A DNA stretch of 64,000 nucleotides from Vermamoeba vermiformis (taxonomy: Eukaryota). The notes under the pieces were generated by a model. The model saw only the letters and a list, made by a program, of their open reading frames with translations, was not told the DNA's origin and ran no database searches. The first letter of the stretch is position 1. Each line of letters starts with the position of its first letter. The stretch covers positions 496,001 to 560,000 of the forward strand of contig JBEWZL010000003.1 of assembly GCA_045837725.1 (NCBI GenBank). The letters run 5' to 3'. Below, in pieces: positions 1 to 62,433 of the stretch. The position numbers and the translations under genes were made by a program.

Positions 1-881
1 TGCCCAATGGCACTGCTGGTCCACGCATGACTTTGCCTGGCAACTCCAGTGGCTCCATCAGTCCGCCAGGCTCACCTGTGGTCACTGCGCACAACGCTCA
101 GCCTCCTCAACAGCCTTTGCAACCACTCAATCCTCAACCGACTAGCCCGCAACAAACAGCTCCGAATGGCATTGTTAGACCTACTTCGCCTCAACCAACA
201 GCCCCGCAGACTCAACAAACTCCTGTTCAAGTTGCGGCACCACAACAACCTCAGACCACTACACCGCCACAAGTCCACACCCCACCCACTGCTCAACCTA
301 CTCAAACTGCTCCGCCTCAGCAGGTTGTGGCCCAAACTCCACCTCCTCAGACTGTTGCCCCTGTGCAAGAAGCTTCACCTCAGGTGCAGCCACAAGCACA
401 GCAAGAGGTTCAAGCACAACCTCAACCTCAACCTCAACCTCAAACGGCGCCTCAACTTCAACCTCAAGCAGCGCCTCAAGTCACTCAACCGCCCCAGACT
501 CCTCATGCACAGGCCGCTCCTGACGTGTTGGATCCGGCCACTATTCGTCCGTTCAAGCTCGAAGACGCCCTCAATGTGTTGGGCCAACAGTTCCCTGGTG
601 TTCCACTCGAGCAATGGAACTACTACGACGAGAAAGGTGCTGTGCTCGGCACTCCTTCGAACGTGCAGATCTCGTACGTGAAGAAGGGTCCCAGTTGCTA
701 CTTGTGCGACATCAAGCCTCAAGTTGCTGTCGCGGATGTCGGCACACTTCTCAAAGTGGGCACGTTGTATCGCTCTGTGAACCCTCAGGACCGCTTGGCA
801 TGCGTGATTATCACCCCGAACATCACGCCCAGAGCTGAGGAGATCGCACAGAGATACTACATCAAAGTCTACAAGATCTAG
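1..881 (+). CDS. 3' part of a Pro/Gln/Thr-rich protein ending in a DUF3782-like PD-(D/E)XK-fold domain (probably 5'-truncated by the window)
   Basis: ORF 27-881. A low-complexity PQ tract is followed by QWNYYDEKGAVLGTPSNVQISYVKKGPSCYLCDIK...VADVGTLLKVGTLY...ACVIITPNITPRAEEIAQRYYIKVY. This resembles the archaeal/bacterial pattern W.YYDE.G.V.G.PS.VE.D...ExK...DV..L.R...LY. A paralog lies at 48665-50189. Confidence 0.7.
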   Translation, partial: PNGTAGPRMTLPGNSSGSISPPGSPVVTAHNAQPPQQPLQPLNPQPTSPQQTAPNGIVRPTSPQPTAPQTQQTPVQVAAPQQPQTTTPPQVHTPPTAQPTQTAPPQQVVAQTPPPQTVAPVQEASPQVQPQAQQEVQAQPQPQPQPQTAPQLQPQAAPQVTQPPQTPHAQAAPDVLDPATIRPFKLEDALNVLGQQFPGVPLEQWNYYDEKGAVLGTPSNVQISYVKKGPSCYLCDIKPQVAVADVGTLLKVGTLYRSVNPQDRLACVIITPNITPRAEEIAQRYYIKVYKI

Positions 882-987: not shown

Positions 988-3900
988 TTATTTGCGACGG
1001 TACTGCGTGTCGCCGTCTTTCTTCGGGTTATTATTGTTGTCAGGGTGCGTCGTCTTTTGTCGCTTGTAATTCGGCTGTTGCTCGTTGTTCCTCTGACCTT
1101 CATTACCCCTGTGATAGTTGCCTCGATTGTTGTTTTGCCCATTGTTTCTCTGTTGACCTCGGGGCGGTGGAGTCTGCACTGTGTATTGTACAGGCTGTGG
1201 CTGCTGTGAATAGTTCGCATAGCCGTAGTTCTGGCCGTAAAACATTGGTTGCGCGTTAAACTGTGGTGGGAAGTTCGGATTAAAATAGGCATTTTGAGCA
1301 CCATATTGTGGATTTAATACAGGTGGCAGTGAATAGTTCTGCGACGGCTCGTACTGAATTTGTTGTTGCGGGAGCTGTTCAAGTTGCGCTTGTTCACCAG
1401 CGTTGCTAGTCTGTCCGTACCGCTGAGAATTATTCCGTTGATTGTTGTCGTAATTGCTGTTGTACTGCTGACGTCTATTGTTATAATAATCAGATCTGCC
1501 GCCTCTGTCCTGTTGGTCTCGTCGCTCATATCTATTGTTGTTACTATAGTCAGTTCTGACACTTCTGTCTTGCTGCTCTCGGCGTTCGTGTCGTGTGGTG
1601 TTTGAAGGGGGCTTGTACGTGGCCAAGTACTTGACAGGACTGGGCTCAAAGACGTCTTCATTCGACCAGTCAACCAAGAACACATTCGTCAGTTCAGGCG
1701 AGTCCACGTGATACACAATTGCCACAAAATACACGCTGGTGTCTCGCTCTACCTCCGCAATGTGTTTTCGTACTTTGAGCTGGTTGTCGCTGATTTCAAT
1801 TTGTCCGTTCCAGTCCTTTGCAAAGCCTTTGACTTCAAAGTAACATTTCTTCGCTTTTTTGTTTTGTGAGCGGTCTTGCGTGAATAATTGCAGCGTGTCA
1901 ATTAACACAAAATCATAGCCCGCCTTCTCGTTGATGTTGCTCGTGCTGTTCGGATACACCGCAGTGCGTGAGCCAGACACCCAGCTGACGTACGGATTGA
2001 ACGCTTGACCGTATTTGTTGGCGAGATAGGCGCAGAAGAACTTTTCAGCGTCATCACCGATACGTTTGGCATCTTGTGGCGTGAACATGTACGGCCGTTC
2101 ATCCGTGGTCAAGTGCGGGCACGAGAATAGATCGCTGCGTGCATCCAACGATTTGATGCGTTCAATCATGGCTGGATCTGACACCGCCAATGGACTCAGT
2201 ACGTCATCGAATGAAACAATCTGATTGCTGCCACTCGCGTCTTGTTCTACTCGTTGATTGTCGGCAAAGTAGTGGAAGTTCTGTGAGAGTGAGCCTTCAG
2301 CTGGTGTTGGGAACACAACGAGCTCCGTGTCAAACTCTTCGGGCTCACTCGACAGACTCTTCGACCACGCAATGTTTGAGTCAGCGGTGCACTCCTTCAG
2401 TGCCTTGAATGCGTGCTTCTGGGCCTCTTCTTCGCTCCACGTGACATTCTTGCGTAAGAGCATGTTTGTCAGCGCACTCGAGATGATTGACATGCGCGCG
2501 GAATGTGGCAGGGTCTTGACAGCGCAGTAGACGAGAGTGTCATCGCAAATCAGATAAGGAATGTCCGATTTGATCATCACTGACATGACGTCATTGCCAT
2601 CGATGACACCTGTCGTTGACAACGAGCGCAAATGTGAATAGACAATACTGCACGGAATGTATTTGACTGACAGCACTGTAATGTCTTGCTTTCCAAGTGC
2701 GTGCTGAAACGCTTCAGAGACTTGTTGTAGCTTGTATTCAATATTAGCGCCAGTGTGGCCCAACGTGACTACTGAGATTTGTTCAATGTACTGGACTTGC
2801 AGGGCTGTCATTGCGCGCGGACAGTTGATGGCAATGGTCGGGTGCACAAACGGCACTGGATCAACGTTAGACACGCTCTTGATGATGGGATCTTGCAAAC
2901 AGGAACGAATGTTCTTCGTGTCCTTTAAAAACACGAGTCGTTTGGAGTGCAGCGGAATGGGCAAGTTGCCTGACAGAGTGCCGGGCGAGCGATGAAGATT
3001 GCGCCACGTCCAGTTGTGCAAATAAAGAGGATTGTCTGGCTCGACAGTCTCGACAGCACCTTTCGTGGATAATTGTTCATGACGCTTCAATGCCATTTCG
3101 AGCAATTGATAGGTCGCGATGAAGTCCTCGAGGCCGTCATTTGACAGGAGTGACATTTCGCTTCCCACGGGCAAGAAGTACTTTTGATTCTTTGCCATTT
3201 CATTGAGTGCTGCACATATGTCTGCAACAGGTGGGAATGTGTGACTGCCAAGTGTTCGGAGGAGTGAAACGAATGGGAGATAGTTGTTGTTGGCATTTAA
3301 ATTGATGAGCGATTTGTTCAGTGTCTTGCACACAAGAGTGACGGCGCCGTTGTTGTTGTCAATGTTGCACAAATAAATATCTTGTGGTGCGGCAAATCGT
3401 TTGTCGTCGTCCAAGTACAGCAGCGGTTGACTGGCGTAAACAGAATCGACCTTGTCATTGCCCAAAGTGTTTTTGAGTCGCCACAGCCATTCAGTATACT
3501 TCTCAGTGTTTGTATTGTTAGTGCGCGCAAATGCTGTCAAAATCTCCAACGAGTTAGTGGCAGTGGTAGTGCTGCACACTCCAAGCATGTCTGCGACTTT
3601 GCAAGCGTGCGGCGGGACTTCAATCGAGGGCAAGGCATCGCGGAATACACTGGCATTGGCAACTTTTGAGATTGGCAACTGCGAGCCATCGCTGAGTTTG
3701 ACAATCATGTTGCGGATCAAAGGAGTCATAGGGCTGTCGTTGGAGTAGTACGTCAATATTTGCTGTCCAAAAGTAGCTGCTTGTTCGCTCCAGTTTGCCA
3801 ATGGATTGAGTTCGAGACTAGGTGCTGGTTTGATGCTGAGCAAGTTGACAGGAGGCACTGCATTCATTTCTAAGAAAAACCACTCCCAGTGCATGTCATC

Positions 3901-6900
3901 TTCAAGACTCTCAAACTTGCCTCCGTAAGGATAAGCAACAGAGGGCATGACATGCTTAGAGACATCAGTGGTTAACAATGTCGGCACTGTCAATGCTGAG
4001 AGGATCATTGGGACTTGAGTGCTTGACGGTACAAGCAGCACTAACTTCAATTTCTCGATCAGATCTTCGGTCAGTTCAAGCAAGTGGTCTCGAATGTAGG
4101 TCAAGTCCTGCCACAGCAAAGAGGTCTCTTCGGTAGTTTTGTTGATCGCAGCTTGTAGATGAATGTTGCTGAGCAATTCTACAACTCTTTGCGGGACTAG
4201 CGCTGTCAAATGTAATTGTCCTTCTAAGAGATGTTTTTCGCTGGATGACGTATAGCAAACAACATTGAAGTCATGTCTCCATGGTTTGATGATATTAGTG
4301 GCTGGTGACACGAAGCAGTATTGGTCGTTCATAGGCCCGCGTGTCTTGCCAAACAAAAATATGGGAGCTTGTTTGATCTTAGTCGCGTACTTGTCAATCG
4401 TGGTCAAAGGCAGTCCATTGAAAAGTTTGAACAGATTCTCCCACCACACTTCTGTTTGATTGTTTGCGTAGTCCTTGAATCCACTATGGTCGAAGCAGTC
4501 GAGTACATCGATAGCAGATAAGCGTCGGACATAGCTTGAAATCAATTTGATCTTCTCCGAGTTCAATTGCGCACTGTCCAACAGCTGCACATTGGAGTAC
4601 TGCTCGATGAGTCCAGCAGGCACAACGTCCAAGACTTTGTTGTCGGGCATCACGAGCTCTTTCTTGTTGTGACCCGAAGCATCGCTCGACAGCAGCTTCT
4701 TCAACCGCTCGTCCTTAAGTACTGCGTGCACGTTATCTACAAACAGACTCCACCAGCGAGACATGGCAGGGTTGTGCTCTGGAATGAATTCCCAAGCATG
4801 AGCGTAGATACTGGGATGATTCAATAGCGCCCATTTGAGCATCTCTGCAGCGGTGTCGCGAAGGTATCTGTTCCACGCTTTGTCTTGGATACTTTCTCGG
4901 TTAGTAACGAGTATCCAGTCGCATTGAAGCAAAAACTTGAAGCCAATGTCACTGACAGGCAGGTACGCGAAGATTGGGAATGTTTCGTCCTGTCGCAAGT
5001 CTTTCACGAGCGGGAATGCAAGCATTATGTTGGTCTCTGAAGCCCTTTGCTTATCTTCGGCGACAATGTCAGCGGGAACGTGTACATCCGCTTTGAGCAC
5101 GTGGAACTGTTGAGAACTGGTTTTAGACTTGTCGCTCTCGCTGATCGTGGTGGTGACACGAAGATCTTGTTGGTAGTTCTGAACGGTGAGAGCTCCAGCA
5201 GGAAGTGAGACAATATTGGACGGAACTGTGCACGAAACAACGGTATGTTGAGCATTGAGTCGATCGATTATCGTAATCTTCTTCAATTGCTTCAAGGTCA
5301 ACAAGACGTGCTTGTCGAGCGATCTGTAAACGTCGTCGTAGAACTCTCTGATATTGCTCTGAACGCGCTTCATCAAGGGCAAATAGATGAATGTTCGGTA
5401 CTCCTGATGTTTGAGCACTGCCTGGGACAGCTCAGGCGGGAACTGTTCTGAAGCTAGCCACAGCGGAGTGATGTACGCCATTTCATCCTTCTCGGGTGTC
5501 TTGTTGAAGCAGAATTGCCAAGGACCTGACACGATAATCGGCGCATTCGTAACAGAAAACACAGACTTGAAGCCTAGTCCTTTTTGACCGATGTGCGCTC
5601 CACCAGTCTTTGTGCTGACCGACAGATTGCATAGTGATTCAACGTCACGCGCCAAGAATCCGCACTCGTTACACGCAAACAGGATGCTGTCTTCATTGAG
5701 CGTAATCAACACACTTGGTGTGGTGCCAGTCGAGTACTGGTTGTCGTCTGCATTCTGAATCAGCTCGTTGATGAAGTGTGAGCTCAGCGAGTAAAGATCA
5801 GGTCCGAGTTGGCGCAGTGAGCCGCAGATTGTCTTGCGTAAGGTCTTCAAACTATCGCGCTTTTGTTTCAGGTTGTCGATGAACCTAAGCGCTGCTTCAG
5901 GTGACACTTCGGTTGGGTCGGTGATGTCGAGGAGAGGATCACGTTCTGGGCTTTGATCTTCAACTTGGGTCGATGACTCAATTACTGTGCTTGTTGAAAC
6001 CTTCACTACTTCGCTTGAGCTGTGTAATTGTGGTTTGATCAGCTCTGCTCTCAATCGTGCCAATTCAGCTTGTAACTGAGACTTTTCAGCGTCAGCTGCT
6101 TCCTTCAACTTCGTCATCTTTTCAAGCTGTTCAGCTAGTTCCACATTTTGTTGCTTCTGTTCGGCAAGTTGCAGAGTGACCTCCTCTCTCGACAGTCTAT
6201 CAAGTTCAGTCTTGAAAGCATCCTGTAAGGACTTCGTTGACATAAAATCACGTGCTGACGACGGTTTTTTCCACCTTTCTTCAAGATCTCTCCAAGATTG
6301 AAGTAGATCGATTAATTTGCTCTTTGTGTCAATTTGCATCGTATCCTCGACCTTGGACGTGTCTTCTTTCATATCCACCTTCTCCTTGTTTTCCTCGAGC
6401 TCACTTTCTTCGTCTTCTTCATCGCTGTCACCTCTGACGCTAAATATTTGGCTTCGTTGCGTCAACTTCAAGACTTGATTGAACAGCGCGACCACAATTC
6501 GAAGTACTCTATGATTGGCCTCTTCTTTGATAAGTTGGCTAATGCAAGAGGAAACATTCTCGAGCAGCGATTGCAAGTCAACCTCGGCTACTATTGCCCT
6601 GGTACCCCACTTCAGGATGGCATCAATACTGCCGTAGATATTGCCCGCAAATGAGGGGTAGTACTTGTTGGCTAAAGCAGCGTACCGAATCAGCTTGTTG
6701 ACATCGTTGCTCGAGAGGTCATTGCATAGATCATGCACACCATCGATCAACAGCTGTAGCACCAGAGCTACATCCCGGTTAGCAAACAGGGCAAGATATC
6801 GTTTTGCAATGGCGTTGTCTTCTTCTGATTGGGGTGTAAATGTCTCTATCAGCTCCATCGTAGAAAAGATAGTGTCACGAATGGCGTGTACAAAGGAGAA

Positions 6901-8106
6901 AGCGTTGTCTTGTCCCAATTTCTTTTCAAATTCTATCACTCGGTAGCTGTAACGCAAGTGATCATCTCGCAGTGCCCCACTCGCCAATGAACACCCATAC
7001 GTGCGTAGCATGAGGCTGCTCGTTGACAAAAGTGTTTGGGATAGCCTCCAGAACTCGTCAGTTTCGAACATCTCTGGTGCAAAGTACAAGTGATGCGCTG
7101 CATGCTTGATGACACGACAAAGTCCACATAGCAGGTACTCTTTGATGTCCTTTTGATCTTTAGCGGTCATATTCAACATGTTTGAGAATCGATCAGTCAT
7201 AACAGCCAGGTCACCGGGTGTAGAAGTTGGATTGGCTCGGTATTCCTCTGTCCATTTAATGGCGATCAAACAAAGTATCTGACAGTACTTGAGATAGTGT
7301 CCTTGCCAATGAGCTTTGCGAATCAGGATCACACGTTGCATTGCATTTTTCTCTTCGCGCCATGAAGCAGTACCAGCGATAACTCCGTAAAACAAGTGCA
7401 GCATTTGTTCTTGATCTTCAGCCGAGCCATTGGTCAGCACATTAATTGTCTGTTTGAGAAGTGCTTCCGCTCGCTTGTCTAACAACCTTTTTGATTGCTG
7501 AAGGATGCTGATTGCTTCACCTTTGTTTCTCTTTCGTTCAGGCTTGAGTGTCTGATTGACACGTGTCATCGCAGTCGTTGGATTGGGTCGTTTGTTGCTC
7601 TCGATGTCATCCATGATATAACTTATTAGCTCAGTTTGCGTAGAGAAGTCGTCGTCTGAACTGTCAGCAAACCAAATTCGAGAGAATAGTTGTGGATCTG
7701 CTTTCAAGTGGGCCAAGAATTCTTGTGCCCAGTCAATGTATGTTCGCCAGGCTTCAGAATATACCTCTGGCGCAGTTTTATCCAATAACGAGGCTTTGTG
7801 ACAAGTGTCTTCCTCGGACCAAAAGAAAACAATGCGGATCTGCTCGCTGCTTAATCCAAGAGATTTCAACTCTTCTACTGTGATCTTTGGTGAACATACA
7901 AATGGTTGTGTCTTTTCTATCGTGCAGGCATCTTCCCACTCAGCTTTGAGCGATTCCAAGTCCTCAATTCTGGCTGCAGACGTGGTGAAAAACGATGCAT
8001 GTTCATGATTGCGATGGTGCGGCAGTGAATAAGCCAATCGCCGTCGAGCCAAACTACATGGAGCACCAACTAATAGTACTAAACGAGGCTTCTTGTCGGA
8101 TTCCAT
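988..8106 (-). CDS. Intronless 2372-aa Sacsin/NO VEIN-like GHKL ATPase with a C-terminal DUF3883 (NOV C-terminal, restriction-endonuclease-like) domain and an N/Q/R-rich tail
   Basis: Single ORF. GHKL motifs HFINELIQNADDN, NECGF and STK..IGQKGLGFKSVF are present, plus PIFAYLPV...GFKFLLQCDWILVTNRESI typical of NOV-like proteins. The C-terminus has RIGDDAEKF...GYDF...YFEVKG...ISDNQ. Confidence 0.9.
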   Translation of the reverse strand: MESDKKPRLVLLVGAPCSLARRRLAYSLPHHRNHEHASFFTTSAARIEDLESLKAEWEDACTIEKTQPFVCSPKITVEELKSLGLSSEQIRIVFFWSEEDTCHKASLLDKTAPEVYSEAWRTYIDWAQEFLAHLKADPQLFSRIWFADSSDDDFSTQTELISYIMDDIESNKRPNPTTAMTRVNQTLKPERKRNKGEAISILQQSKRLLDKRAEALLKQTINVLTNGSAEDQEQMLHLFYGVIAGTASWREEKNAMQRVILIRKAHWQGHYLKYCQILCLIAIKWTEEYRANPTSTPGDLAVMTDRFSNMLNMTAKDQKDIKEYLLCGLCRVIKHAAHHLYFAPEMFETDEFWRLSQTLLSTSSLMLRTYGCSLASGALRDDHLRYSYRVIEFEKKLGQDNAFSFVHAIRDTIFSTMELIETFTPQSEEDNAIAKRYLALFANRDVALVLQLLIDGVHDLCNDLSSNDVNKLIRYAALANKYYPSFAGNIYGSIDAILKWGTRAIVAEVDLQSLLENVSSCISQLIKEEANHRVLRIVVALFNQVLKLTQRSQIFSVRGDSDEEDEESELEENKEKVDMKEDTSKVEDTMQIDTKSKLIDLLQSWRDLEERWKKPSSARDFMSTKSLQDAFKTELDRLSREEVTLQLAEQKQQNVELAEQLEKMTKLKEAADAEKSQLQAELARLRAELIKPQLHSSSEVVKVSTSTVIESSTQVEDQSPERDPLLDITDPTEVSPEAALRFIDNLKQKRDSLKTLRKTICGSLRQLGPDLYSLSSHFINELIQNADDNQYSTGTTPSVLITLNEDSILFACNECGFLARDVESLCNLSVSTKTGGAHIGQKGLGFKSVFSVTNAPIIVSGPWQFCFNKTPEKDEMAYITPLWLASEQFPPELSQAVLKHQEYRTFIYLPLMKRVQSNIREFYDDVYRSLDKHVLLTLKQLKKITIIDRLNAQHTVVSCTVPSNIVSLPAGALTVQNYQQDLRVTTTISESDKSKTSSQQFHVLKADVHVPADIVAEDKQRASETNIMLAFPLVKDLRQDETFPIFAYLPVSDIGFKFLLQCDWILVTNRESIQDKAWNRYLRDTAAEMLKWALLNHPSIYAHAWEFIPEHNPAMSRWWSLFVDNVHAVLKDERLKKLLSSDASGHNKKELVMPDNKVLDVVPAGLIEQYSNVQLLDSAQLNSEKIKLISSYVRRLSAIDVLDCFDHSGFKDYANNQTEVWWENLFKLFNGLPLTTIDKYATKIKQAPIFLFGKTRGPMNDQYCFVSPATNIIKPWRHDFNVVCYTSSSEKHLLEGQLHLTALVPQRVVELLSNIHLQAAINKTTEETSLLWQDLTYIRDHLLELTEDLIEKLKLVLLVPSSTQVPMILSALTVPTLLTTDVSKHVMPSVAYPYGGKFESLEDDMHWEWFFLEMNAVPPVNLLSIKPAPSLELNPLANWSEQAATFGQQILTYYSNDSPMTPLIRNMIVKLSDGSQLPISKVANASVFRDALPSIEVPPHACKVADMLGVCSTTTATNSLEILTAFARTNNTNTEKYTEWLWRLKNTLGNDKVDSVYASQPLLYLDDDKRFAAPQDIYLCNIDNNNGAVTLVCKTLNKSLINLNANNNYLPFVSLLRTLGSHTFPPVADICAALNEMAKNQKYFLPVGSEMSLLSNDGLEDFIATYQLLEMALKRHEQLSTKGAVETVEPDNPLYLHNWTWRNLHRSPGTLSGNLPIPLHSKRLVFLKDTKNIRSCLQDPIIKSVSNVDPVPFVHPTIAINCPRAMTALQVQYIEQISVVTLGHTGANIEYKLQQVSEAFQHALGKQDITVLSVKYIPCSIVYSHLRSLSTTGVIDGNDVMSVMIKSDIPYLICDDTLVYCAVKTLPHSARMSIISSALTNMLLRKNVTWSEEEAQKHAFKALKECTADSNIAWSKSLSSEPEEFDTELVVFPTPAEGSLSQNFHYFADNQRVEQDASGSNQIVSFDDVLSPLAVSDPAMIERIKSLDARSDLFSCPHLTTDERPYMFTPQDAKRIGDDAEKFFCAYLANKYGQAFNPYVSWVSGSRTAVYPNSTSNINEKAGYDFVLIDTLQLFTQDRSQNKKAKKCYFEVKGFAKDWNGQIEISDNQLKVRKHIAEVERDTSVYFVAIVYHVDSPELTNVFLVDWSNEDVFEPSPVKYLATYKPPSNTTRHERREQQDRSVRTDYSNNNRYERRDQQDRGGRSDYYNNRRQQYNSNYDNNQRNNSQRYGQTSNAGEQAQLEQLPQQQIQYEPSQNYSLPPVLNPQYGAQNAYFNPNFPPQFNAQPMFYGQNYGYANYSQQPQPVQYTVQTPPPRGQQRNNGQNNNRGNYHRGNEGQRNNEQQPNYKRQKTTHPDNNNNPKKDGDTQYRRK

Positions 8107-10815: not shown

Positions 10816-13800
10816 TTATTTGTTGGCATTAACGAACATGGTGTGCACTCCCCACTTGGTGTTCTTCTTGAAGGAGTTAACTCCGGATTCGATTAAATTC
10901 TGGTACGATAGTTAGTAACGTTACTTAATAGCTCTTGTGTCATAGAGTCATACCTTGATTCTAGTTCTAGCATCGGCTTCGGACATTGTGATCATCAAGC
11001 TATCAGGGGACAAGAGGAAGTTTCGAAGTTTCTGTGTGTCCAGGTCCAGGCCATCGAACAAGATGCAGCACAAATTGGCAATGAGACCAGCGTTTCTGCA
11101 AGATACCTATTAGGTTAATATTACTTATAGATAGAGCACATTACCTGTGCAAGATAGTGAAGGCATCCGCGCAGATCTGCTTGAATTCCTCCCAGTCGTT
11201 GTCACCCAAGTTGAGCTTCATCTCCGTAGCAATCGCAAATCTGGGCGCATCAATGGTTGGCTTCTCATTGAACACTTTGCCGAAGTCAATGTGGAAGAAG
11301 AGGCAGTTGTTGCGCATCATCATGTTGTCTTGATGACGGTCACGAATGCCCAACACCCAGCCTGCCACGTAACTGCCCGCAGCAGAGCAGAACAGTGTTC
11401 TCTTTTCCTCGGGACTCAATGTCTTGATCTTGGTCCAGTCGAACGTCTGCAAGCTCTCGCAGGGCTGCACGAACTCTACGGCACCGATATCGAAGCCCAT
11501 CGGAATGATTTTGTATTGATAGATGAACGGGATCGATGGCATGTTGGAGTTCTTCCACAGCGTGTTGAAGACGAAGAACATCACTTGCACGAGCAGATCT
11601 TGTCGCAAGTCATCGCCCTTCTTGAAAATGAAGAAGTTGGGCTTCTTATCTGCGTTCTTGTACTTCATCTCCAACAATAACGGCTTGGCTTTTGACGAGA
11701 ACACCTTCTTCACCGTCACTTCAGTCACGACGTTGTTGCCACCTGATTCTTCTTCGTAAATAGGGTCGAGAATGTCCAAGTCCTTGATGACAGTGCCCTT
11801 CTCTGGTGGATTTCCGCTGGCGTTGTACAACTCACGGTAGAACTTGAGACTGTTCTGGAATCGCAACCCCGCGACCCATTCCAAATTAGGAAAGTCCTTG
11901 GCGCGAATCATGTTCGTCTCTTGCATCCAGAACGCAGTCTGAGCCAAGTACTGCGACTCTTTGACATGTGCTAACAGCGTTGAGATCAAGTGTTGCTGCG
12001 AGTCCTCGTTCAACTCTAGCTTCAAGCCATCAGCAAGCTGTTGTTTGCTGTGATTGAGAGTCTTGATGATCAACGGCAAGTACCACACGAGCTCGCTCTT
12101 AGGACACAAGCTCAAGTACTCCTCGTCAATCACGCGGAAGAAGTTCAATTTGTACAAGAACTGCAAGGCCGGTGTCAACATCTTGCCGGCCTTCTTGTGC
12201 TTGTGACGCTTCTTGCGCTTCTTTCTGACCTCACCGTCAAATTGATAGAACAGCACGTCACTGTCGTCGAATCGACAAAGTGTCTCGGCCGCTTGTTGAC
12301 GGATGTGTTGGTCGGATGAGCGCAGCAATCGTCGCAAATAGTCCGCCACTTTAACTTCAACCAACTCTGATTTCATCATGTGACAGATCTCAGCTGCAAA
12401 AGTTGATTAGAGTTACATGCCAGTCGTGCCATCATTCGCAGCTTACCGTTCGAGGCGAGGTCTCGGATGAACTTCAACGCGGCAGTTTGAATGATGTGAT
12501 GCGGAACATTGAGCAGGCGAATGACGTACTTGAGAATGCTCCAGCCACGTTGCAAGTCAGGCGAGAATCGCTTGTGTTTCTTGCTGTGCGTGAGTCTAGG
12601 ACTTTCAGTGTTCGTGTCCGAGGACTCATTGAGCTTGTCTCTGTTCTCTTCACTCTCAACGTGTGCTTTGAATTGTTGATCGAATTCCAACAAATATTTC
12701 TCCAGTTTTTCTAAAAGAATGTTAAATTACACGTGCCGTATTTAATATTAAGCTTACTCTGGTCGCCAAGTGCGTTCAATATTGGCAAAGCAATAGGCAG
12801 CAACTTGTTGAGTTTCAAGGGCACTTCAAGCCCTTCCATGGATCGCACGTACTCGGGCTGCACGCCAATCCATTCGAGAGTAACTACCGGGACCGCGGCA
12901 GGTGCTGATGCTCCCGAGATATTGGGTGAGTTCGATGGACTGGAAGAATTCGAGAATGAAGGACGAGTGCCGCGTACTGATCTCACTGACGGCGAGCCAA
13001 CACTATCCTTAGCCTTTTCATGCAATTAATTTAATACCAAGCAATACTAGCTAGTGAACTTACACTCAGGTCCACGGTCTTATTGAAGGATGAAATATCT
13101 TCGCCTGAAGGTGTTTTGAGTCTGTAAGGTGCTGCGTGATTGACAGGCGAGGTGAACAAGAATGAGTTGAGGATTTGTTCGTGGCTAGTGCACTGTGTTA
13201 GTACCACTCAAACACTCAATGAGCACAGTGACTTACATCAGCTTGCCAGTCAACAACTGTTTTTCAGTGCACAACAAGAATGGCACGAATGACTTGTCCG
13301 CGGGAGCTGTTTGCACCACTTGACAGAATTGGAACTTCTTTGCATCGTCATCGTGATCTTCGTGCACTTGATAGCTGAATAGGCGATTAATATACGATAA
13401 CATTAACAGTCATAGTCATACGCGACAATAATCTCATCGGCATCAGCGGGCACGAGACTCGTGGCTAATTGATCTGCAGCGTGCAATTTGACAATTTGAC
13501 CGTTCTTGACCGTTGTCAACACGATCTCTGCAGGTGTCAAGTGCACCAAGTAGGCCAAGTACTTGATCGTGTCGTACACTGTCACCATCTTGCTCAGTTC
13601 TACGCGCTGTGCGGACTTGTCGCGCTTGTTGTCCACGAACAGAACTGACAATGCCGTCGAGAATTCTAACAGCGAATAAATATTATTAACAAGATCGTGT
13701 AATTATGAAAGATTAATGCGTACCTCTGAACACTTTGCAAGCATAATCAATGGCAAATGTCTCCAGTTGCGCGGATCCGACTTGAGCCTTGTCGACGAGT

Positions 13801-21870: not shown

Positions 21871-24800
21871 TTACTGTTGAAGTTTACGCTGCGGCTCTAA
21901 CAGATTAAAATAGTGCTGAAAAGTTGTTTGCAGTGCTGATTGAATGCTCGCTAGTTTGTCAAATAGCTTGTTGCTCTCAAAGTCGCACAATTTCTTCTGC
22001 TGCTTGGACTCGAATAACACCGCATTTAAACTTTTCTTCAGTCCACTCCATTGCTTCACAGGCTTGCACCAAACATCTCTTTGCTTCGTTGCAAACAACA
22101 TTCCGCTGCCAACGAACACTGACTTGGCTTGACTCGGTTGACTTTTCAATATTTCAAGTAGCTGCCAATAGACTGATAGAGACTCGCTGGCCTTAGATTC
22201 GCGCAAGCACTCGTTGGCGATGCTGATGGTCACTAACTCCGAGAAATTCACAATCAATGGTTCACCTTTGACTGTGAATGAAAATTCCCATTCGTGACAG
22301 GGCAACATTGGCTGGTGGCTCAATAATTTGACTTTCTTCGCTAGCGGCAGTGCTTCAATGACCACAAAGATAATATTTTGATGATTGGCGCTGTCAATAA
22401 TGCTGCTCATGCCCGACCACAACTTGTCTTGCGAAGTGAACTGGGGCAATGACTGCATCAAAAACCATTTGTAGTTCGGCTTCCACTTCAACTTCAAAAT
22501 TTCCAGCGTGCCGTACGAAAAGAATTTTGAGTCAGTCTTCACGGGATTGAACGTGTACGTGTCAACAAAGTGAATGAACGGCGAGTCTTTTGACACTTCT
22601 TGCAGAATTTCTTGCGCTCGTGCAAGTGCGCGGGGTTGCGTTGGTGCTTTGCTTTCTGCTCGACCGAATTTGATGTTCGGAACGAGCTCCGCGCCGACAG
22701 TGCACACTTGAGGGACGTTCATAATGTTTGTGATCACGCCACCAATGTCGTTTTGAGCTTCGAGGCTGAAATGTCGGGTAATGTCTTCAGGGTGCAGTTG
22801 TCCCGCGGATACATTCATCCACAGTGCACGACGTATTTTAACATGGTCAACCCACGGCGTAAATGAGCCACTGGTAGAAATCAATGTTAGAATATAGGAA
22901 TGGTTGTAAGTGACTCACATTTCTTGTTGAAAACAGTCCCAAATAAAGCAGCGCATGTCAAGCGCACTGAACAATTGACTCCACGACACAAAGTCCTCGG
23001 GCTTGGTGTTCTCATCCACAAACAGCACCACATCAGCATCTTCAGCTCCTACACCACGACATTAAGGTACTTAATATTCGTGCCAGGAACGTACCTTCTA
23101 AGAAACTGTGCCACGACGGAATCTTTTGCACCTCACTTTGTTCGAATTGAATCAATTGATCAGCGAGATGCAACTCGATTTGATGCGTCATTCTTGCAGG
23201 AAATGTTAGTATTAATAACCATTATGGTGTTGAGGACGTACTTCTCGTATGTACACGCCACATCTTCGAGCTTCAGATTGAAATTGATGGTCTTGGACGA
23301 GTTCGGTGGCACTTTGCCGACATTAATCTCCCACACTTTGAAGCCGTTCTCTTGACTCACAGGGAAGGCATCAGGACACGTCAGACCAACGGGCAACTTC
23401 CACGTCAATTGATAGTCGAGGCCTGTTTCTTTTGCAGACCTGTTCGTGACCTCTATACTGAACTGCTTTGTCTCGTTGTCGCTCATTCGCAGCAATTGGT
23501 GTATAGTTCTGAAGGTCAATGGCCAAGTGTAATTAATGCTCGCAACTTGTCCCGAGGTCGCTAGTTCTCGTCCGTGCAGCGTCGAGGTGAAAACAATGTG
23601 ACATGTTGACAATTGCACACCAGGATCGGTCAGGGGCTGGACAGGCAAGGCGATCGAGATTGCTGGTTGAATCACAAAGCGCTCTTGTGGCGCGAGTTGC
23701 GGAATTTCGCCCAAAATAAATTCATTGAACGATTCACTGAATGAACATCGCAGCTCAGCACCAGCAGGCAATGTCAAGCCTCCCGTATTGCACACCGTGA
23801 CTTTAGTCAAAGTGAGCGTGTCACCAAATGAGATGTAACCATCGTTGTTGCCGTCAGTGACTTCGAGCTCCACGACAGTCACGTTGAACACTGAATGGCC
23901 CTGCTCGACCACTTGTCCGTCCTCGCTAAGCAAACAATACGTCACCAGACCTGAGGGTCCTGCTTTGCCTGCAATGCCATCGGCTCCTCTTTTGCCTAGT
24001 GACGATGTTAGAAGGAGCGTTACTAGCATATCTCTCGTACCGTTTGGTCCATCACGGCCGTTTGATCCTGGAGCACCGTCCTTGCCATCGGTTCCTGAAT
24101 TAAATTCATCGCCAGGAATTAAATAGCCTCGTCCTCCGCGGCCTCCAGCGCCACCTCTGCCACCTACATAATAATTTACATCAGACTATGCAATTACAGC
24201 ATGTTATGATGATAGGGTACCTAGACCGCCACGGCCCCCTTCGCCACCATGACCGCCGTCACCTGCCAGGCCACCATTGGATTGAACTGAAGAGACTAAA
24301 AAGGCGAGAGTACTGCGCGCACAAAGGATTATGTCACCTCCGCGACCTCCATCACCGCCCTGTTGTCGTTAAGTTAAGCCTTAATTACGTGCTAACTAAG
24401 CAGCACCTACATTGCCTCCGAATCCTCCATCACCACCAGCACTTCCGTCTTCACCAGGGCCACTGCGAGAGGTTAAAATCGCGTGACTTCTTCCAGTATA
24501 TGATGTTGAACATACCCGTCTTCGCCGTCTTCTCCATTGGGCCAATCACGTGTGCCTGAAGCACCATCTTGACCTGAAATCAAAGTTAAAATACCGCCAC
24601 TTCTAAGCAGCCAATTGTCGCGTACCATTTTCACCACGAGCACCGGTGCCTCCAACACCGCCGATACCACCTTGCAAGCACAATTAGCCTTCGTATTGGT
24701 ATAAAATTAATACCTTTGCCACCATTGCCTCCTCGTCCACCGAGTGCATAAATGTCAAGAATAGATGACTTGTCTAGTCGAAAAGCTGTTGCTGCTCTAC

Positions 24801-46614: not shown

Positions 46615-47619
46615 TTACAATTCCTCGTCTGTAGGCATATCAATCAGTTCCACACGACTGCCTGCCTCGCCGAGTTCTATACAAGGATATACAGTGCCTT
46701 CTACGCCTTTGAAGGCCACACCATAGTCGACACCGTCGATGATAAAGCGGATTTGTTTCATTTTTGGGTTGTAATTGACCTCGATTATCTTGCCAGGCTC
46801 GATCATCTTGTCGCAGTAGCTGTGACTGACTTCATCTTGCATTGAGAATAAGTTGCCGCAGTAAAGATTCAAGTACCAGCCGCAGCTCAAGAAATTGGAG
46901 GCGTTTGGTTCAAACGTGATCGGCGCCATACCGACGTTCAGTGTCGTACTGTTATAACAACGCACTCGATATGACGAGTTAGGTTTGTTGCCGAGAACAG
47001 CTGCGTCCCAGCCCTGGCCATTGGTGCGTGTTGCAATGCGGTTCCCTTCGCTCAACACGATCTTGTCTGATTTGAGCTTGGAGTCCCAGCGAAGTGGTGT
47101 GTCTTTGGGATATTTCTTCTCCAGCTGCTTGAGTAGTCCTTCGACTTGATAGAACTCTGCCTCTAGTCTGAACTCTTTGAGCTCAGCGCTCGACTGATCT
47201 TCTTTGAGGATCAGCATGCCCGTGCGGAGGTAGTTTAAGATTGTGGCGAAGTGTTTGGGGTCTCGGTCGATAAAGTACGAGCCATCTTCATCAGGCTCGA
47301 GGTTGAATTGTCCACTGAACATCGCTGAGAGCATTGACCGCTCTTTGAGTAGGGTCTGAAGGGATGTGGTGAATAATTGCCCGCCAACATTCAATTTGAC
47401 CTTCTTATTTGGTAAATTCTTTTGGATAGTCGTATTTGCGATGTTAGTGTTGATTATTGCGAGGTTATTGGGCACTGGTGGGGTTGGTGGAGTGGATTTG
47501 AGTTGTTTTAAGAACGAGCCCAAGTGATCTCGCAACAATTCGACTTCTTTTATCAAGCTTTGCTCGCGACTCGACGAATCCTTGCCATTTGATGTGTGTT
47601 TTCCATTTTCTAGGGTCAT
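46615..47619 (-). CDS. KCTD-type BTB/POZ + SPRY/B30.2-like domain protein
   Basis: KVKLNVGGQLFTTSLQTL..SMLSAMFSG...YFIDRDPKHFATILNYLRTG, then IVLSEGNRIATR...IRFIIDGVDYGVAFKGVEGTVYPCIEL. The first ATG is taken at MTLENGK. Confidence 0.88.
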   Translation of the reverse strand: MTLENGKHTSNGKDSSSREQSLIKEVELLRDHLGSFLKQLKSTPPTPPVPNNLAIINTNIANTTIQKNLPNKKVKLNVGGQLFTTSLQTLLKERSMLSAMFSGQFNLEPDEDGSYFIDRDPKHFATILNYLRTGMLILKEDQSSAELKEFRLEAEFYQVEGLLKQLEKKYPKDTPLRWDSKLKSDKIVLSEGNRIATRTNGQGWDAAVLGNKPNSSYRVRCYNSTTLNVGMAPITFEPNASNFLSCGWYLNLYCGNLFSMQDEVSHSYCDKMIEPGKIIEVNYNPKMKQIRFIIDGVDYGVAFKGVEGTVYPCIELGEAGSRVELIDMPTDEEL

Positions 47620-48664
47620 TTTGCTCAATCTAGACTCGCTTTTGCTGGAGCAATGAACTAGGTCAGATCCAGGATACAAATTTGTGCAATTTAAAATCAT
47701 ATTGCTTGTAAATTAGAAAGTTAATTTACATACAATTTATTTTGTTAAAATCTATATTTTTGGGAGATTACGATTTTGTATTTAATTTTTCTTTTTGACG
47801 ATCGACTTACCTTGGTGAACCAACAACTTCTCCATTGCTACCATTAGTGCTGCTAACATTGGTCTTATTTTTAGTTTTAGTTGGTGGAGAAGTCGGTGTT
47901 GTTATCGGCACGCTGGTAGAAGAAGCGGACTCGGCTTCGTTCTGAACTTCCATCCAGATCTTGATCAATGCAAATAATTAAACTCGGGCAATTGTGTTGT
48001 AGCAGTGTTCTTACGACAATAGAGCTCGGTGTTTGGAACCGTAAAAATCGTGGTGAAAGAATCACGTGTTTTCTGTTAGCCGAACTGAGTGTTAGCAACA
48101 ACTCGACTTATTTGTTCAAGAATGTAGCACATATAACCGAGCTTTTTACTAATGAAAATAGGGGTTAATTAGCACTGAGCTCATAAAGCTCTAAACTGAA
48201 AACAGACTGGAGAATCTGTAAGTGCGCCGAAGTTGGATATTTAAGAATCGTATTTTTAAAAAAAAAGCCATAATTTCAAATTGCTGTTGACGCTGTTTAC
48301 GTTTCAAATTAATTTCGATTTTTAATATTCCGTATTTCGGCCTCAGGACCGATCTGTAGCAGTGGCAAACTACCAACTAACTACTAGCAGTTAGTGACAT
48401 TTATAATTAATTATTCGATCGAGAATGATTTATTAAAATTACAGTGTACAAACGATTTCTTTTGAATAAAGGTTATCGTGCAATTAAATCAAACAGAATT
48501 GTCGTTATGGTTGTTCGAATCTCGTTCCTCGATATAGACGTAATGATGTTAGCATTAGGTCTAGACTCAAGCAATTATACAAATGTGAAAAACAAGATCT
48601 GAACACAATAACTGCAATTCCGTTTCTCTCTAACGCACGACTGTTATCGCTAAGGCCTCGCGCC

Positions 48665-50189
48665 TTATTGGGCATTAATAATTCGAATGTTTGCGCGCGT
48701 TGCAATCTTTTGCGCCTTTTCAGAGATTGTTTTAGCGATCACTACGCAAGCCAAGCTGTGTGTCGGATTAGCAGTCTTGTACAGCTTGCCAATACGAATC
48801 AGTGTAACTACGTCGCCAATATCGACGCTCTGCATGTATTATTTTGGATTAGTATCGCATTAACATGAAGCATAAACGCGAAGATCCGATCCGGACAATT
48901 AAAGTTGGTTTCAACGAAATATTTTGCAATTTAACCAATAAAACTGGTAATTATATCCAATTTAAGTCTAATCAAGGTAGTTGCAAATTCATTTAAGACG
49001 TCACGAATGAAAAGGCACACGAAAGAGTAATTTCAATAATAATGTTGCGTTATTTTCATCGGTAATGCCTGCATAAAGCATGATATATCGAATAAACAGC
49101 TTAAATAATTACACTTACGTCTCTAGTGTCGCACAAATAGTTGTTATCGAAATGTTTGATGAGATCTATCTCAATTTCTTCTGGGTATCCGTAAATAGCG
49201 CCTAAAGTGCTGTCAATAATAATGTTCATAATAAAAAATTGTTATTATTATTGCTTTGAAATGTGCCACGATCTGGATCAAAAAAATCTATCCAGATTGC
49301 TTTAATTAGGCTTGATATTTACCTTTCTGATCGTAATATTTCCACACTTGCAATTCACTTCCGGGAAACTCGCGTTCTACCAGTGCTTTGAGCTCGATCG
49401 TAGATTTGACACCGGTCGGAACGTCCTTCACCAAATTTTCTGTTGTAGGAGGTGCAGGTGCAGCAACGGGTGTAGGTGATGGCTGTACGTATGATTGTGG
49501 ATTTGTTGACGGCAATGCTTTCTCTAGTTCTGCCCTAATCATGGCGCTAATTACGCGTCCAAATTCTTGCTTGAAATCTGGATCTCTTAACACTGAAAGT
49601 ACCGTATCTCTATTTACAATTGCCTCGCTCCTCTATTCATGTAAATTAAATATTAGAATTTTATCAAGCAATAATTAATTGCACAGGATGTGGTTTGGTA
49701 ATAAAAAAAATTACGTACGTCGGTAGCAAAGCTGCCAGAATGATTTATTGAGGGATAACTGTCATTTCCAAAACTCGATGAAAAGCTGTCGATGCTGCCA
49801 CGGTAACCGGGTGACTATCATAGTAATCAAATCCAAATTAATTTTACGTTGTCAAAATTTGACGGCCATAAATGCCAATAATGCCGTAAATTAAACATAT
49901 AATTAATTATTAATCGTGCAATGTGGTATTTACACGAGAGACGTTATTATCATTATCGGATTGAAAAAAAAAATAATTTGATCCGAAACAAAATCTCTTG
50001 ATTTAATAATCCACTTACGCTTAAATTTTGTTGTGAGTTGTAAGGTGATAATGGAGGCTGTCCGTCACCATTTATTTGGTCTCCATAGCCGGTGTTTCCC
50101 CCTGAATTAGGTTGATCGGAATAACCACCAAATCCACTGCTATAGTTATTATTTGGGTCGTGTTCCATCGTATAGACCTGTGTAGCCAT
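48665..50189 (-). CDS. Second DUF3782-like PD-(D/E)XK-fold protein (paralog of the C-terminus of the gene at 1-881), multi-exon
   Basis: Splicing 49321>49202 and 49119>48829 gives ELKALVEREFPGSELQVWKYYDQKGAIYGYPEEIEIDLIKHFDNNYLCDTRDSVDIGDVVTLIRIGKLYKTANPTHSLACVVIAKTISEKAQKIATRANIRIINAQ*. This is colinear with the gene 1 domain. The N-terminus is MATQVYTMEHD..., low complexity. Confidence 0.78.
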
Positions 50190-50444
50190 ATAAAAAGGAA
50201 ACGAAAAACCAAAATTCGCGTCCGACTGACAAAGTCGAGGCAGTTTGACATATGTCACGAAATAATTTACATTAGCGCAACGCTACCTGCAACGAACACC
50301 ATAATACCCCTGTAAATATTATGGAGATATTCATTAGATCTATTCTATGAATTTTTGAAGCTTGGTAACGTCACTGTACGAAATGCAGATCGTGTTTCTT
50401 CAGATCTTCTCGTGCAACTTCATTCGCTGATAAGGAAATATTTA

Positions 50445-57475: not shown

Positions 57476-57727
57476 CCCATCCGCACAGCATGGACGCCCA
57501 TCCGCACAGCAGGGACACCTGTCCACACTGCACGGACGCCCATCCGCACAGCACGGACGCCCATCCGCACAGCACGGATGCCTGTCCGCACAGCACGGAC
57601 ACCTGTCCACACAGCAGGGACGCCCATCCACACAGCACGGACGCCCGTCCGCACAGCATGGATGCCTGTCCGCACAGCAGGGACAGCTGTCTGCACAGCA
57701 CGGATGCCCATCCGCACAGCAGGGAAA
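57476..57727. repeat. Minisatellite of 12 x 21 bp, consensus CCCGTCCGCACAGCACGGACG
   Basis: Twelve head-to-tail units read directly, the first at 57476 and the last at 57707. The consensus contains the internal inverted repeat CGTCCG-N7-CGGACG. Confidence 0.97.
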
Positions 57728-60427: not shown

Positions 60428-62433
60428 GATCCCCGCGGGGCCCAAATAAAAATGAATGAAATGATGAGGATAAGAGAATGAAATTTCATTGTTAATTCTA
60501 ATCAATGAATGTTAATTGGTACACGAATGCTTTAAATCAATAGAAGAATGAAGGATGTCATTCTTCATCATTGGTATACTAATCAATGTAAAGTAACAGC
60601 AACGCGTGCTTTAAATCCGGGATAGTCGCGCTAACGCGCGTAAAGCCCATCGTTTTTCGCATCAAAAAGAGCATAAAGAACGCGATTTGGATCTAGTCGC
60701 GCTCCGCGCGCGTTCTTTCTGGGGATCAATCCCCGCAGGGGGTAGGTTTGAAAAAGTGAATGAAAATTGAATTGATTTGATTGTGATGATGATGATGATG
60801 GTGATGATGATCATCATTGCAATGGTATCAATGACTGTTAACTGGTACACGTACGCTTTAAGCACGGGATAATCACGCTAACGCGCGTAATTCCCATCAT
60901 TTTGCACGTAAAAAAGAGCAAAAAGATCGATATTTGGATCTAATAGCGCTCCGCGCACTCTTTTCCGGGGATCAATCCCCGCAGGGGGTAACTTATGAAG
61001 AAAATCAGTGAAATTTGAGATTAGTTGATGATGATGACAATGATGATAATGATGGTGATGATTATGATGATGATGATGATGATCATGAGAAGGATGATAA
61101 TGATGATGTGACAATGTCGTGCAAAAAGAGCATTAAGAACGGAATTGAGAGCAAAGTAAAAGCCAAACAAAAAGAACGCTAGTGCAGTTCTGGGGATTGA
61201 TCCCCGCAGGGGGTAACTTTAAAGAAAATGAATGAAAATTGAAATTAGATGATATGATGATGATGACAATGATGATGATCGTGAATATGAGAACGATGAT
61301 GATGATGATGTGATGATGTGTCGTAAAAAAGAGCAGAAAGAACGGCATTGAGAGCAAGTAAAAGCCGAACAAAAAGAACGCTCATGTAGTTCCAGGGATC
61401 GATCCCCGCAGGGGGTAAGTTTAAAGAAAATGAATGAAAATTGCAATTAGTTGATGATGATGATGTAATGATGATGCAGTGATGATGATCATCCTGAGGA
61501 TGATGATGATGATGATGAAGACAAGATGATGATCATGGCAATGATGATGATATGGTTGAACGAATCAAGAGCATAAAGAATGTACTTGGAGCTAACAACG
61601 AAGAGCGTAAAGAATGGTACCGAAAGCAAGTAAATGCCGAACAAAAAGACCGCGCTTGTAGTAACAGGGCTGCTTTCCCCGCAGGGGGTAGGTTACGAAG
61701 AAATTCAATGATACTTGAAATAATTCAATGATGATGATGATGGTAATGTGATGATGATGATGTGATGATGATATGGAGTGATGATGATATGGTGTGAGTG
61801 ACTTGATAACAAAACAGCAAATCAAGGATGGAAATAAAAAAACAAAGAGCATAAAGAATGTAGTTGGAGCTAACAAAGAAGAGCGTTAAGAAGGTAATTG
61901 GGAGCTAAAAAAGGCCGAACAAAAAGAACGCTAGTGTAGTACCGGGGATCGATCCCCGCAGGGGGTAGTTTAAAAAAAAATGATAAAAATTGTAGGATAA
62001 TTTGATAATGATGATAAGGATGATAATGATGAAGTGATGACGTGGTGCACAAGAGCATAAAGAATGTAGTTGGAGCTAACAAAGAAGAGTGTTAAGAAGG
62101 TAATTGGGAGCTAAAAAAGGCCGAACAAAAAAGAGCGCGCGTGTAGTTCCGGGGCTGCTTTCCCTGCAGGGGGTAGTTCACAGAGAAATGACAAATATTG
62201 AAGAGTTTTAATGATGATGATCATGTGATGATGAAAATGTAATGATGAAGATGATTATCATGAAAATGATGATATGGTGTGAGTCAATTAATGGCAAAAC
62301 AGTTAGCGGATGATGAAAAATTGACAAACAAAGAGCATAAAGAATGTGGTTGGAGCTAATGAAAAAGAGTGTTAAGAATGCTATTGAGAGCTAAGTAAAG
62401 CCGAGCAAAAAGAACACGCGCGTAGTTCCGGGG
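60428..62433. repeat. Complex tandem array of 7 full and 2 partial units of ~200-280 bp with a conserved palindromic core and variable (GAT)n tracts
   Basis: The core CCC(C/T)GCAGGGGGTA occurs at 60731, 60977, 61202, 61404, 61677, 61954 and 62162. It is preceded by AAAGAGCATAAAGAA...GCCGAACAAAAAGAACGC...GTAGTTCCGGGGATCGAT and followed by an AAATGAATGAAAATTG-like segment plus degenerate GATGAT tracts. Confidence 0.95.

Follow-up and report, generated by a model that had tools for sequence, protein, structure and literature searches.

The 19 proteins from which DUF1626 was defined as a family of the PD-(D/E)XK superfamily come from archaea and bacteria and bear coiled coils at their N termini; the Lys of motif III is often replaced in this family (PMC1913061). 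A survey published in 2012 gave the range of DUF1626 as 'Prokaryota' and its function as unknown (PMC3424549), stalks formed by coiled coils in 'a family of prokaryotic endonucleases' have been grouped as Pfam DUF3782 (PMC4786415), and operons of a HEPN family with 'REase (DUF1626)' have been described (PMC3710099). Here, we analyze a 64-kb stretch of the genome of Vermamoeba vermiformis (assembly GCA_045837725.1, contig JBEWZL010000003.1, positions 496,001 to 560,000 of the forward strand; hereafter the window, numbered from its first letter), which holds two copies of a domain. By sequence comparison, this domain forms a eukaryotic branch that is sister to the coiled-coil endonucleases of the prokaryotic DUF3782/PDDEXK_10 (DUF1626) family. 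Copy B, on the minus strand at 50189..48665, is a real, expressed gene of five exons with a coding sequence of 825 nt for a protein of 274 amino acids. Copy A, on the plus strand at 3..881, belongs to a gene that is truncated by the window start and of which the last 292 codons and the stop remain; it encodes a P/Q-rich linker followed by the domain (561..878, 106 amino acids).

The window copies are like PDDEXK_10/DUF1626 in sequence across the whole ∼100-residue domain, which is also C-terminal in the prokaryotic proteins and also follows helical sequence. They differ by eukaryotic spliceosomal introns and by their position on a separate branch (SH-aLRT [Shimodaira-Hasegawa-like approximate likelihood ratio test] 99). 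The catalytic triad is mostly kept in the prokaryote-type rows (41/46), whereas 7/64 members of the eukaryotic branch retain it. In place of the long coiled-coil stalk, copy B has a short helix and a disordered linker, and the eukaryotic branch further differs by its frequent fusion behind RasGEF domains.

ERCC1, EME1, the RAP domain, and the N-terminal domain of RPB5 are noncatalytic PD-(D/E)XK-fold modules in eukaryotic proteins. In these, the nuclease fold was kept, the active site was lost, and the fold was reused for binding or assembly, as we propose for the module described below; they have no RasGEF link, and the likeness is one of fold reuse, with no claim of kinship in sequence. In the literature searched, which included few subscription journals, we found no description of a eukaryotic DUF1626 branch, in agreement with an earlier sequence-only reading of the window that had called the family undescribed, and a full-text search of the same scope found no report of RasGEF with 'nuclease superfamily' or 'endonuclease-like'.

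Family membership

The domain of copy A scored 23.0 bits against Pfam PF07788 (PDDEXK_10, formerly DUF1626), above the gathering score of 21.2 bits, while the whole open reading frame (ORF) of copy A (20.1 bits) and exon 5 of copy B alone (18.4 bits) stayed below it. Among 37 scanned relatives, 7 reached the cut-off, one of them prokaryote-type. Pfam splits one structural domain over two models, which lowers the PF07788 scores of divergent members. As to the DUF3782 stalk, only the last 20 model positions (59-78) matched, at E 0.016; this match covers 561..620 of the window, where the nuclease fold has its first beta-strand region (W.YYDE.G). A protein-language-model atlas gave PDDEXK_10/DUF3782 clusters, mostly archaeal, as neighbors of the domain.

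A HMMER profile search with an alignment of copy A and the exon pieces of copy B (A1) against 1.84 billion representatives returned 283 proteins at E<=0.001; 48 of these reached <=1e-10, and 4 reached <=1e-30. Among the matches listed, the domain lies at or close to the C-terminal end of the protein. From the best 150 matches, the 108 with a full-length domain were combined with both window copies over 106 columns, and a quick maximum-likelihood search split them into 46 prokaryote-type and 64 eukaryote-type rows (SH-aLRT 99). The 20 long RasGEF rows are all on the eukaryote-type side, as are both window copies. Copy B groups with P0001 and P0004 (SH-aLRT 83), and copy A falls within a group of 14 rows, seven of which are RasGEF rows (SH-aLRT 89). 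Of the expanded protist family envisaged by the sequence-only reading, the large size is supported, 62 of the 108 matches belonging to the eukaryote-type branch.

A hidden Markov model (HMM) built from the 46 prokaryote-type rows only scored 82.9 bits on spliced copy B and 78.1 bits on copy A, compared with 7.3 bits for the best of 1000 shuffled domains. In a further alignment (A3), 55 of 82 members matched PF07788 (best E 7e-25), 45 matched DUF3782, and 5 matched NucS_C. Judged from these profile comparisons, homology to the PDDEXK_10/DUF3782 family is secure, and the tree presents the domain as a eukaryotic sister branch of that family. The distribution of this branch departs from the prokaryotic one, since four spliceosomal introns are removed from copy B in RNA and the branch is fused to RasGEF.

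Prokaryote-type members (P0039, E 9e-40) match the whole length of C3a181, a PADLOC model that corresponds to a candidate type III CRISPR-associated cluster with 3 occurrences (PMC6546367). A link of the ancestral family to defense is weakly suggested by this match. C3a181 was not matched by the copy A domain, P0004, or P0008, for which scans of NCBIfam and PADLOC gave no match either. A word-index protein search with the copy A domain or with P0007 gave no match, and with P0003 it returned only two relatives, annotated 'jgi: hypothetical protein'. One of the profile matches, P0011 (1016 amino acids, 11 partial matches), was discarded as a false positive because it is a translated tandem repeat; it lies outside the 108 tree rows and also yields a spurious Ntox46 match in Pfam.

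Fold

An AlphaFold model of the copy A domain reached a pLDDT (predicted local distance difference test) of 96.9, with the succession of helices (H) and strands (E) H3-10, E17-23, E33-42, E45-51, H57-73, E78-85, H90-98, and E102-105; the model made from the single sequence had a pLDDT of 43. Foldseek returned four matches at E<=0.001, every one of them EndoMS/NucS (E 1.8e-4). VIA-align against 48,161 chains likewise placed NucS first (Z 11.7, root mean square deviation 2.8, 94 residues aligned), followed by AF1548 (Z 10.5), Can2 (Z 8.7 and 8.2), and VC1899 (Z 8.1), all of them PD-(D/E)XK folds; RPB5-like chains scored Z 5.3-6.2. The modeled topology is the one predicted for DUF1626 (PMC1913061). 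According to the model, the copy A domain thus has the PD-(D/E)XK fold, and the 41% gap-free identity between the copies argues for the same fold in copy B. The membership of the nuclease superfamily that had been read from the letters is upheld by the PF07788 match together with this fold comparison.

The C-terminal nuclease domain of NucS/EndoMS (PDB 2vld, 5gke) is the best structural match to the model, but it is only 8-14% identical to copy A, and the window copies have neither the N-terminal domain of NucS nor its catalytic residues. Neither copy matched NucS_C, and we consider the resemblance to be one of fold alone. A phmmer search of the PDB with the domain gave nothing meaningful, and the A3 profile searched against the PDB returned mostly coiled-coil noise, with NucS at E 0.094.

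Paralogy and selection

BLASTP aligned spliced copy B to the ORF at 3..881 without gaps, with 40/98 identical residues (41%), 65/98 positives, and a pairwise E of 7e-30; the gap-free alignment proposed from the sequence is real. In tblastn searches of the window, the copy B domain found 585..869 at E 1.4e-27 and the copy A domain found the three exon pieces of copy B at E 8e-12 and 4.8e-6; the remaining matches of either domain had E 0.19 or worse, and the 64-kb window holds no third copy. The similarity of the pair is far beyond chance, and its level (41% identity) marks the two copies as old paralogs and not as products of a recent local duplication.

The coding sequence of copy B contains 25 itemized variant sites over four sequencing runs, a count that leaves a few further, nonitemized sequence differences unclassified; 23 of these sites are synonymous. 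The two that are not (S141P and A123V) fall outside the domain, where 8/8 variant sites are synonymous. For copy A, a metagenome contig (L001) encodes an ortholog with 64% identity over 293 amino acids and ∼95% identity in the domain. Over the last 113 codons, the two differ by 38 synonymous and 6 nonsynonymous codon differences, corresponding to a synonymous divergence (dS) of 0.86, a nonsynonymous divergence (dN) of 0.035, and a dN/dS of 0.04. Both copies are thus under strong purifying selection, and from the variant pattern in copy B and the dN/dS in copy A it follows that both are functional as proteins.

Active site

In the prokaryote-type rows (n = 46), motif II is D in 45/46, the acid of motif III is E in 45/46, and the base of motif III is K in 42/46. 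The canonical (D/E)...(D/E)xK arrangement is found in 41/46 of these rows versus 7/64 eukaryote-type rows. On the eukaryote-type side, the motif II column holds D in 30/64 rows and 13 different residues overall, motif III has D or E in 29/64, and the base is K in 18/64 and R in 22/64. Eight of the 64 rows, copy B among them, read D...(D/E)xR, and the other states account for 49/64 rows, including copy A. The core of the fold is preserved (FPG, W, D..G, G.P, GKLY, C, A...A). These residue patterns show an erosion of the active site across the eukaryotic branch, as would be expected if catalysis were no longer selected.

The residues reported by the sequence-only reading are correct: copy B has E-I-D at motif II and D-T-R at motif III, and copy A has Q-I-S and D-I-K. 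Because motif II reads S in copy A and the K of motif III is R in copy B, we class both as sister-branch homologs and not as nucleases. These states are shared with relatives. Q-I-S and D-I-K of copy A are identical in the ortholog on L001, and the motif III R of copy B is common to P0001 and P0004 and to the neighboring group P0005, P0008, and P0009. In P0001 and P0004, S replaces the motif III acid, and in P0004, E replaces the motif II D. Elsewhere in the tree, a subclade of six rows (P0057, P0061, P0098, P0099, P0130, and P0136; SH-aLRT 99) has K at motif II and P-G, P-S, or P-V at motif III, a replacement of the active site that is both complete and uniform and suggests that a new conserved surface evolved in that subclade.

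Could the domain still cut? Copy B, and perhaps copy A, might be an active nuclease on DNA or RNA, as its prokaryotic relatives presumably are, with a variant site, formed by E, D, and D-x-R in copy B and by relocated residues in copy A. Copy B does retain E-I-D and the acidic residue of motif III; R recurs in the 8/64 D...(D/E)xR rows and in the kin of copy B, which suggests a selected residue and not drift; replacement or migration of the motif III Lys has been reported in DUF1626 (PMC1913061); and both copies are under strong purifying selection. Such selection, however, reveals a function and not which one. Moreover, the closest relatives of copy B have lost the motif III acid to S, with E for the motif II D in P0004, the motif II column varies over 13 residues across the branch with D in only 30/64 rows, and the motif II acid is absent from copy A and from its ortholog. 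We therefore regard retained nuclease activity as improbable.

The sequence-only reading had gone further and noted that the two copies lost complementary catalytic positions, from which a heterodimer can be envisaged, each copy supplying the catalytic residue missing in the other. Letter by letter the complementarity is true (S...D-I-K in copy A, E-I-D...D-T-R in copy B), both genes lie within one 64-kb window, and nuclease/pseudonuclease heterodimers exist in the wider superfamily (XPF-ERCC1 and MUS81-EME1). Yet the losses do not form a matched pair, because each state is conserved in its own group, with no pairing across species, and because the branch lost the triad in many unrelated ways (49/64). 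In addition, motifs II and III of PD-(D/E)XK enzymes lie on neighboring strands of one subunit and bind one metal there, so a site shared between subunits is not expected. We consider the heterodimer very unlikely, and the complementary letters are better described as one instance of a relaxation that runs through the family.

Architecture

A Pfam scan of 37 relatives found RasGEF (PF00617) upstream of the domain in 23, with two RasGEF stretches in 17 of the 23. The ORF of copy A is open at its 5' end, at the window start. Its ortholog on L001 is an ORF of 746 amino acids that comprises RasGEF PF00617 (residues 22-218, E 1.6e-30), a helix (KYFMIDLLCNDTDFKNELTEMVGEAL...), a linker, and the domain; the linker is ∼340 amino acids long, S/P/Q-rich, and contains the stretch aligned to the first residues of copy A. 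Given this architecture, copy A is very probably the end of a RasGEF gene whose upstream part lies before the window start.

The RNA contigs that span the whole coding sequence of copy B contain no RasGEF, and copy B is of the free-standing kind. Its product consists of a G/S/N/Y-rich N terminus, a conserved helix of ∼30 residues, a P/T-rich linker, and the C-terminal domain of ∼100 residues. The N terminus (89 amino acids) is made of G, S, N, Y, Q, P, and D to 75%. It is of low complexity, but the earlier view that the domain is carried on disordered N termini misses the main architecture, with RasGEF upstream in 23/37 scanned relatives and in the ortholog of copy A. The helix motif (RDTVLSVLRDPDFKQEFGRVISAMIRAELEK) occupies codons 97-127 (49519..49611, minus strand). 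In a set of 152 sequences, residues 1-165 of copy B alone align on this helix to 17 family members, the best being P0004 at E 4.5e-4, and an ad hoc pattern for the helix is present in 15/62 eukaryote-type versus 1/46 prokaryote-type rows. We considered the helix as a remnant of the DUF3782 stalk, an origin under which its presence in only 1/46 prokaryote-type rows has to be noted. Two relatives, P0004 (177 amino acids) and P0008 (186 amino acids), start with M and consist of helix, linker, and domain only. As far as these predicted proteins tell, the helix-linker-domain module occurs in two settings, as the C-terminal tail of RasGEF proteins or as a small free-standing protein.

Gene structure and transcripts

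Of 24 sequencing runs found, four were aligned to 48450..50300: raw RNA sequencing (RNA-seq) reads from X21 and X23, both under the same species label as the window, and the contig sets X6 and X12. X6 and X12 each contributed one ∼1.0-kb contig, ∼98.5% identical to the window except for four missing segments, all of which have GT..AG ends on the strand of the gene (CT..AC on the plus strand). The simplest origin for a contig without these four canonical introns is mRNA. The sequence-only reading had joined three exons into a peptide, which we reproduced exactly by joining the same minus-strand pieces; these exons and the two introns between them are real, but the gene has five exons and not three, as the contigs skip two further introns upstream and thereby add 49814..49719 and 50189..50019. 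A four-exon model with a single 386-nt intron was ruled out by the 96-nt exon that the RNA contigs contain within that intron.

Exon 1 (50019..50189, codons 1-57; all coordinates in this section are on the minus strand) is covered by X12 (50019..50188) and X6 (50021..50186) and opens the G/S/N/Y-rich N terminus. The ATG at 50189..50187 is the first of the open frame and is the presumed start, both contigs stopping within 3 bases of it. Intron 1 (49815..50018, 204 nt, GTAAGT..TAG) is skipped in X12; in X6, 206 nt are skipped at this place, with two other letters between the sides. Exon 2 (49719..49814, 96 nt, codons 58-89), flanked by AG and GTACGT, is in both contigs, and intron 2 (49633..49718, 86 nt, GTACGT..TAG) is skipped in both contigs and in 13 raw reads, the joint 49632|49719 being backed by 4 reads of X21 and 9 of X23. 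Exon 3 (49323..49632, codons 90 to the first base of 193), seen in contigs and raw reads, encodes the helix, the P/T-rich linker, and the first residues of the domain (FPGSELQVWKYYDQK).

Intron 3 (49202..49322, 121 nt, GTAAAT..TAG, phase 1) has a G+C content of 27% compared with 39-45% in the exons; it separates an exon end CAG AAA G|GTAAAT at 49323 from an exon start TAG|GC GCT at 49201. Exon 4 (49119..49201), whose joints come from the contigs, encodes strands beta1-beta3 with E-I-D (motif II) and D-T-R (motif III). Intron 4 (48830..49118, 289 nt, GTAAGT..CAG, phase 0) lies between AGA GAC|GTAAGT at 49119 and CAG|AGC GTC at 48829, and exon 5 (48665..48829) encodes the C-terminal half of the domain and ends with the TAA at 48665. 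The 3' untranslated region covers at least 48450..48664, the contig pieces reaching down to 48450 (X12) and 48455 (X6); this end is a lower bound because the contigs extend beyond the interval aligned.

Introns 3 and 4 are both skipped in X6 and X12. The contigs join 48829|49119 (289 bases skipped), exactly as the sequence-only reading had placed this junction, and 49200|49322 (121 bases skipped), which becomes 49201|49323 in its GT..AG form after a shift of +1 and lies within 1-2 bases of the ∼49321/49202 first proposed. These two joints, for which that reading had called for RNA-seq, rest on the two contigs, as the raw reads of X21 and X23 there are below the listing threshold. In total, 16 (X21) and 26 (X23) raw reads map to 48450..50300, mainly to exons 2-3. 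All reads and contigs from the four runs are in the 95-99% identity class, and none reaches >=99%, even in the RNA-seq with the same species label. Runs labeled as other organisms, as well as metagenomes of water and soil, also contain near-identical spliced contigs. The runs may thus come from deeply diverged strains or from an organism that travels with other samples.

These data bear on the possibility that copy B is a pseudogene, a duplicate in decay, or a mosaic of ORFs formed by chance, or that the region is prokaryotic contamination. The catalytic motif is indeed degenerate, the raw RNA-seq depth is low (16 and 26 reads), and the word-index protein search came back empty. On the other hand, the frame stays open across four introns precisely spliced out of the RNA contigs, variant sites are synonymous in 23 cases against 2, free-standing relatives occur elsewhere with 53% identity, and the neighboring genes are eukaryotic (BTB_2 plus SPRY, PI3/PI4 kinase, and sacsin-like). 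As splicing and the synonymous-site pattern contradict them, we reject the pseudogene and contamination readings, whose probability we judge negligible. The earlier view that the domain is integrated in a eukaryotic genome and is not contamination is borne out by this spliced, expressed gene among eukaryotic neighbors.

Neighborhood

At the left end of the window, 988..8106 (minus strand) is a single open frame of 2372 amino acids that converges on copy A, 107 bases from the copy A stop. It carries a sacsin domain (PF25794, 39 bits) and, near the C terminus, NOV_C (PF13020, 22.3 bits, cut-off 22.1), followed by a Q/N/R-rich tail. The NOV_C domain of NO VEIN and sacsin-like proteins, which presumably belongs to the nuclease clan, is likewise a small C-terminal domain on a large eukaryotic protein, but it is a different Pfam family from that of copies A and B, and tblastn with either copy shows no similarity.

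Just downstream of copy B, 46615..47712 (minus strand) encodes BTB_2 (76.8 bits) and SPRY (24.5 bits, slightly below cut-off), an architecture that is KCTD-like with a SPRY tail. Exon-sized frames at 11141..12406 and 23160..24185 (both minus strand) match PI3_PI4_kinase (87 bits) and DUF7932 (26.3 bits, below cut-off), respectively, and are ordinary eukaryotic neighbors. The sole tRNA gene of the window is tRNA-Gln(CTG) at 57533..57625 (minus strand); with 93 nt, it could hold an intron. An Rfam scan of the window found no family. Microsatellites of (TGA)n/(GAT)n at 61026..62273 lie inside tandem units of ∼202-206 bp and account for the strongly positive GC skew (0.30, 0.18) in the final 4 kb of the window.

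Discussion

The window copies combine a conserved nuclease fold with an active site that varies widely over their branch, and their relatives are often fused to RasGEF. We think it fairly likely that the domain is a noncatalytic PD-(D/E)XK-fold module for binding or assembly in RasGEF signaling, of which copy B is a free-standing version. Such a module would have ceased to cut nucleic acid and would act as a binding or assembly device attached to Ras-GEF signaling, and copy B, being free-standing, may interact with the partner of the GEF-borne module or with that module itself.

Several points weigh against this proposal. The loss of catalysis is read from residue patterns, and because 7/64 eukaryote-type rows have the full triad, some members may still cut. 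Copy B itself retains three acidic positions (the E before FPG, E-I-D, and D-x-R), and its Arg could conceivably substitute for Lys. As the motif III Lys of DUF1626 is often replaced and possibly relocated in the members described (PMC1913061), motif counts may understate activity. The RasGEF link of copy A comes from its ortholog and not from the sequence of the window. The structure model covers copy A only, the fold of copy B being assigned by comparison. The tree comes from a quick search over 106 columns with many inner forks unresolved, and the prokaryote-type rows were themselves picked by their similarity to the window copies. Finally, the 'RNA?' label of X6 and X12 is a guess, and raw reads are few at the two joints within the domain.

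A longer scenario can be built on the proposed binding or assembly role, which we put forward tentatively and regard as unlikely. A eukaryote would have taken up a possibly defense-linked DUF3782/PDDEXK_10 endonuclease, the active site would have decayed, and RasGEF proteins, many of them with two RasGEF stretches, would have come to carry the head on their tails as a signaling module. Free-standing paralogs with a prion-like, G/S/N/Y-rich N terminus may then bind the same target or the GEF-borne module, thereby tuning where and when Ras is activated.

A nuclease family described only from prokaryotes, and of unknown function, is now extended to eukaryotes, together with a recurrent architecture that we did not find in print in the literature searched: RasGEF, helix, linker, and a degenerate PD-(D/E)XK domain. 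For annotation, this means that unannotated C-terminal tails of RasGEF proteins and some small 'hypothetical proteins' form one family. If the signaling role is true, a pseudonuclease would be a regulator of small-GTPase signaling. Should the module serve binding or assembly, it would offer a new handle on the localization and regulation of the very large RasGEF repertoires of some microbial eukaryotes and would be a clear example of how an enzyme fold became a nonenzymatic part of a signaling system.

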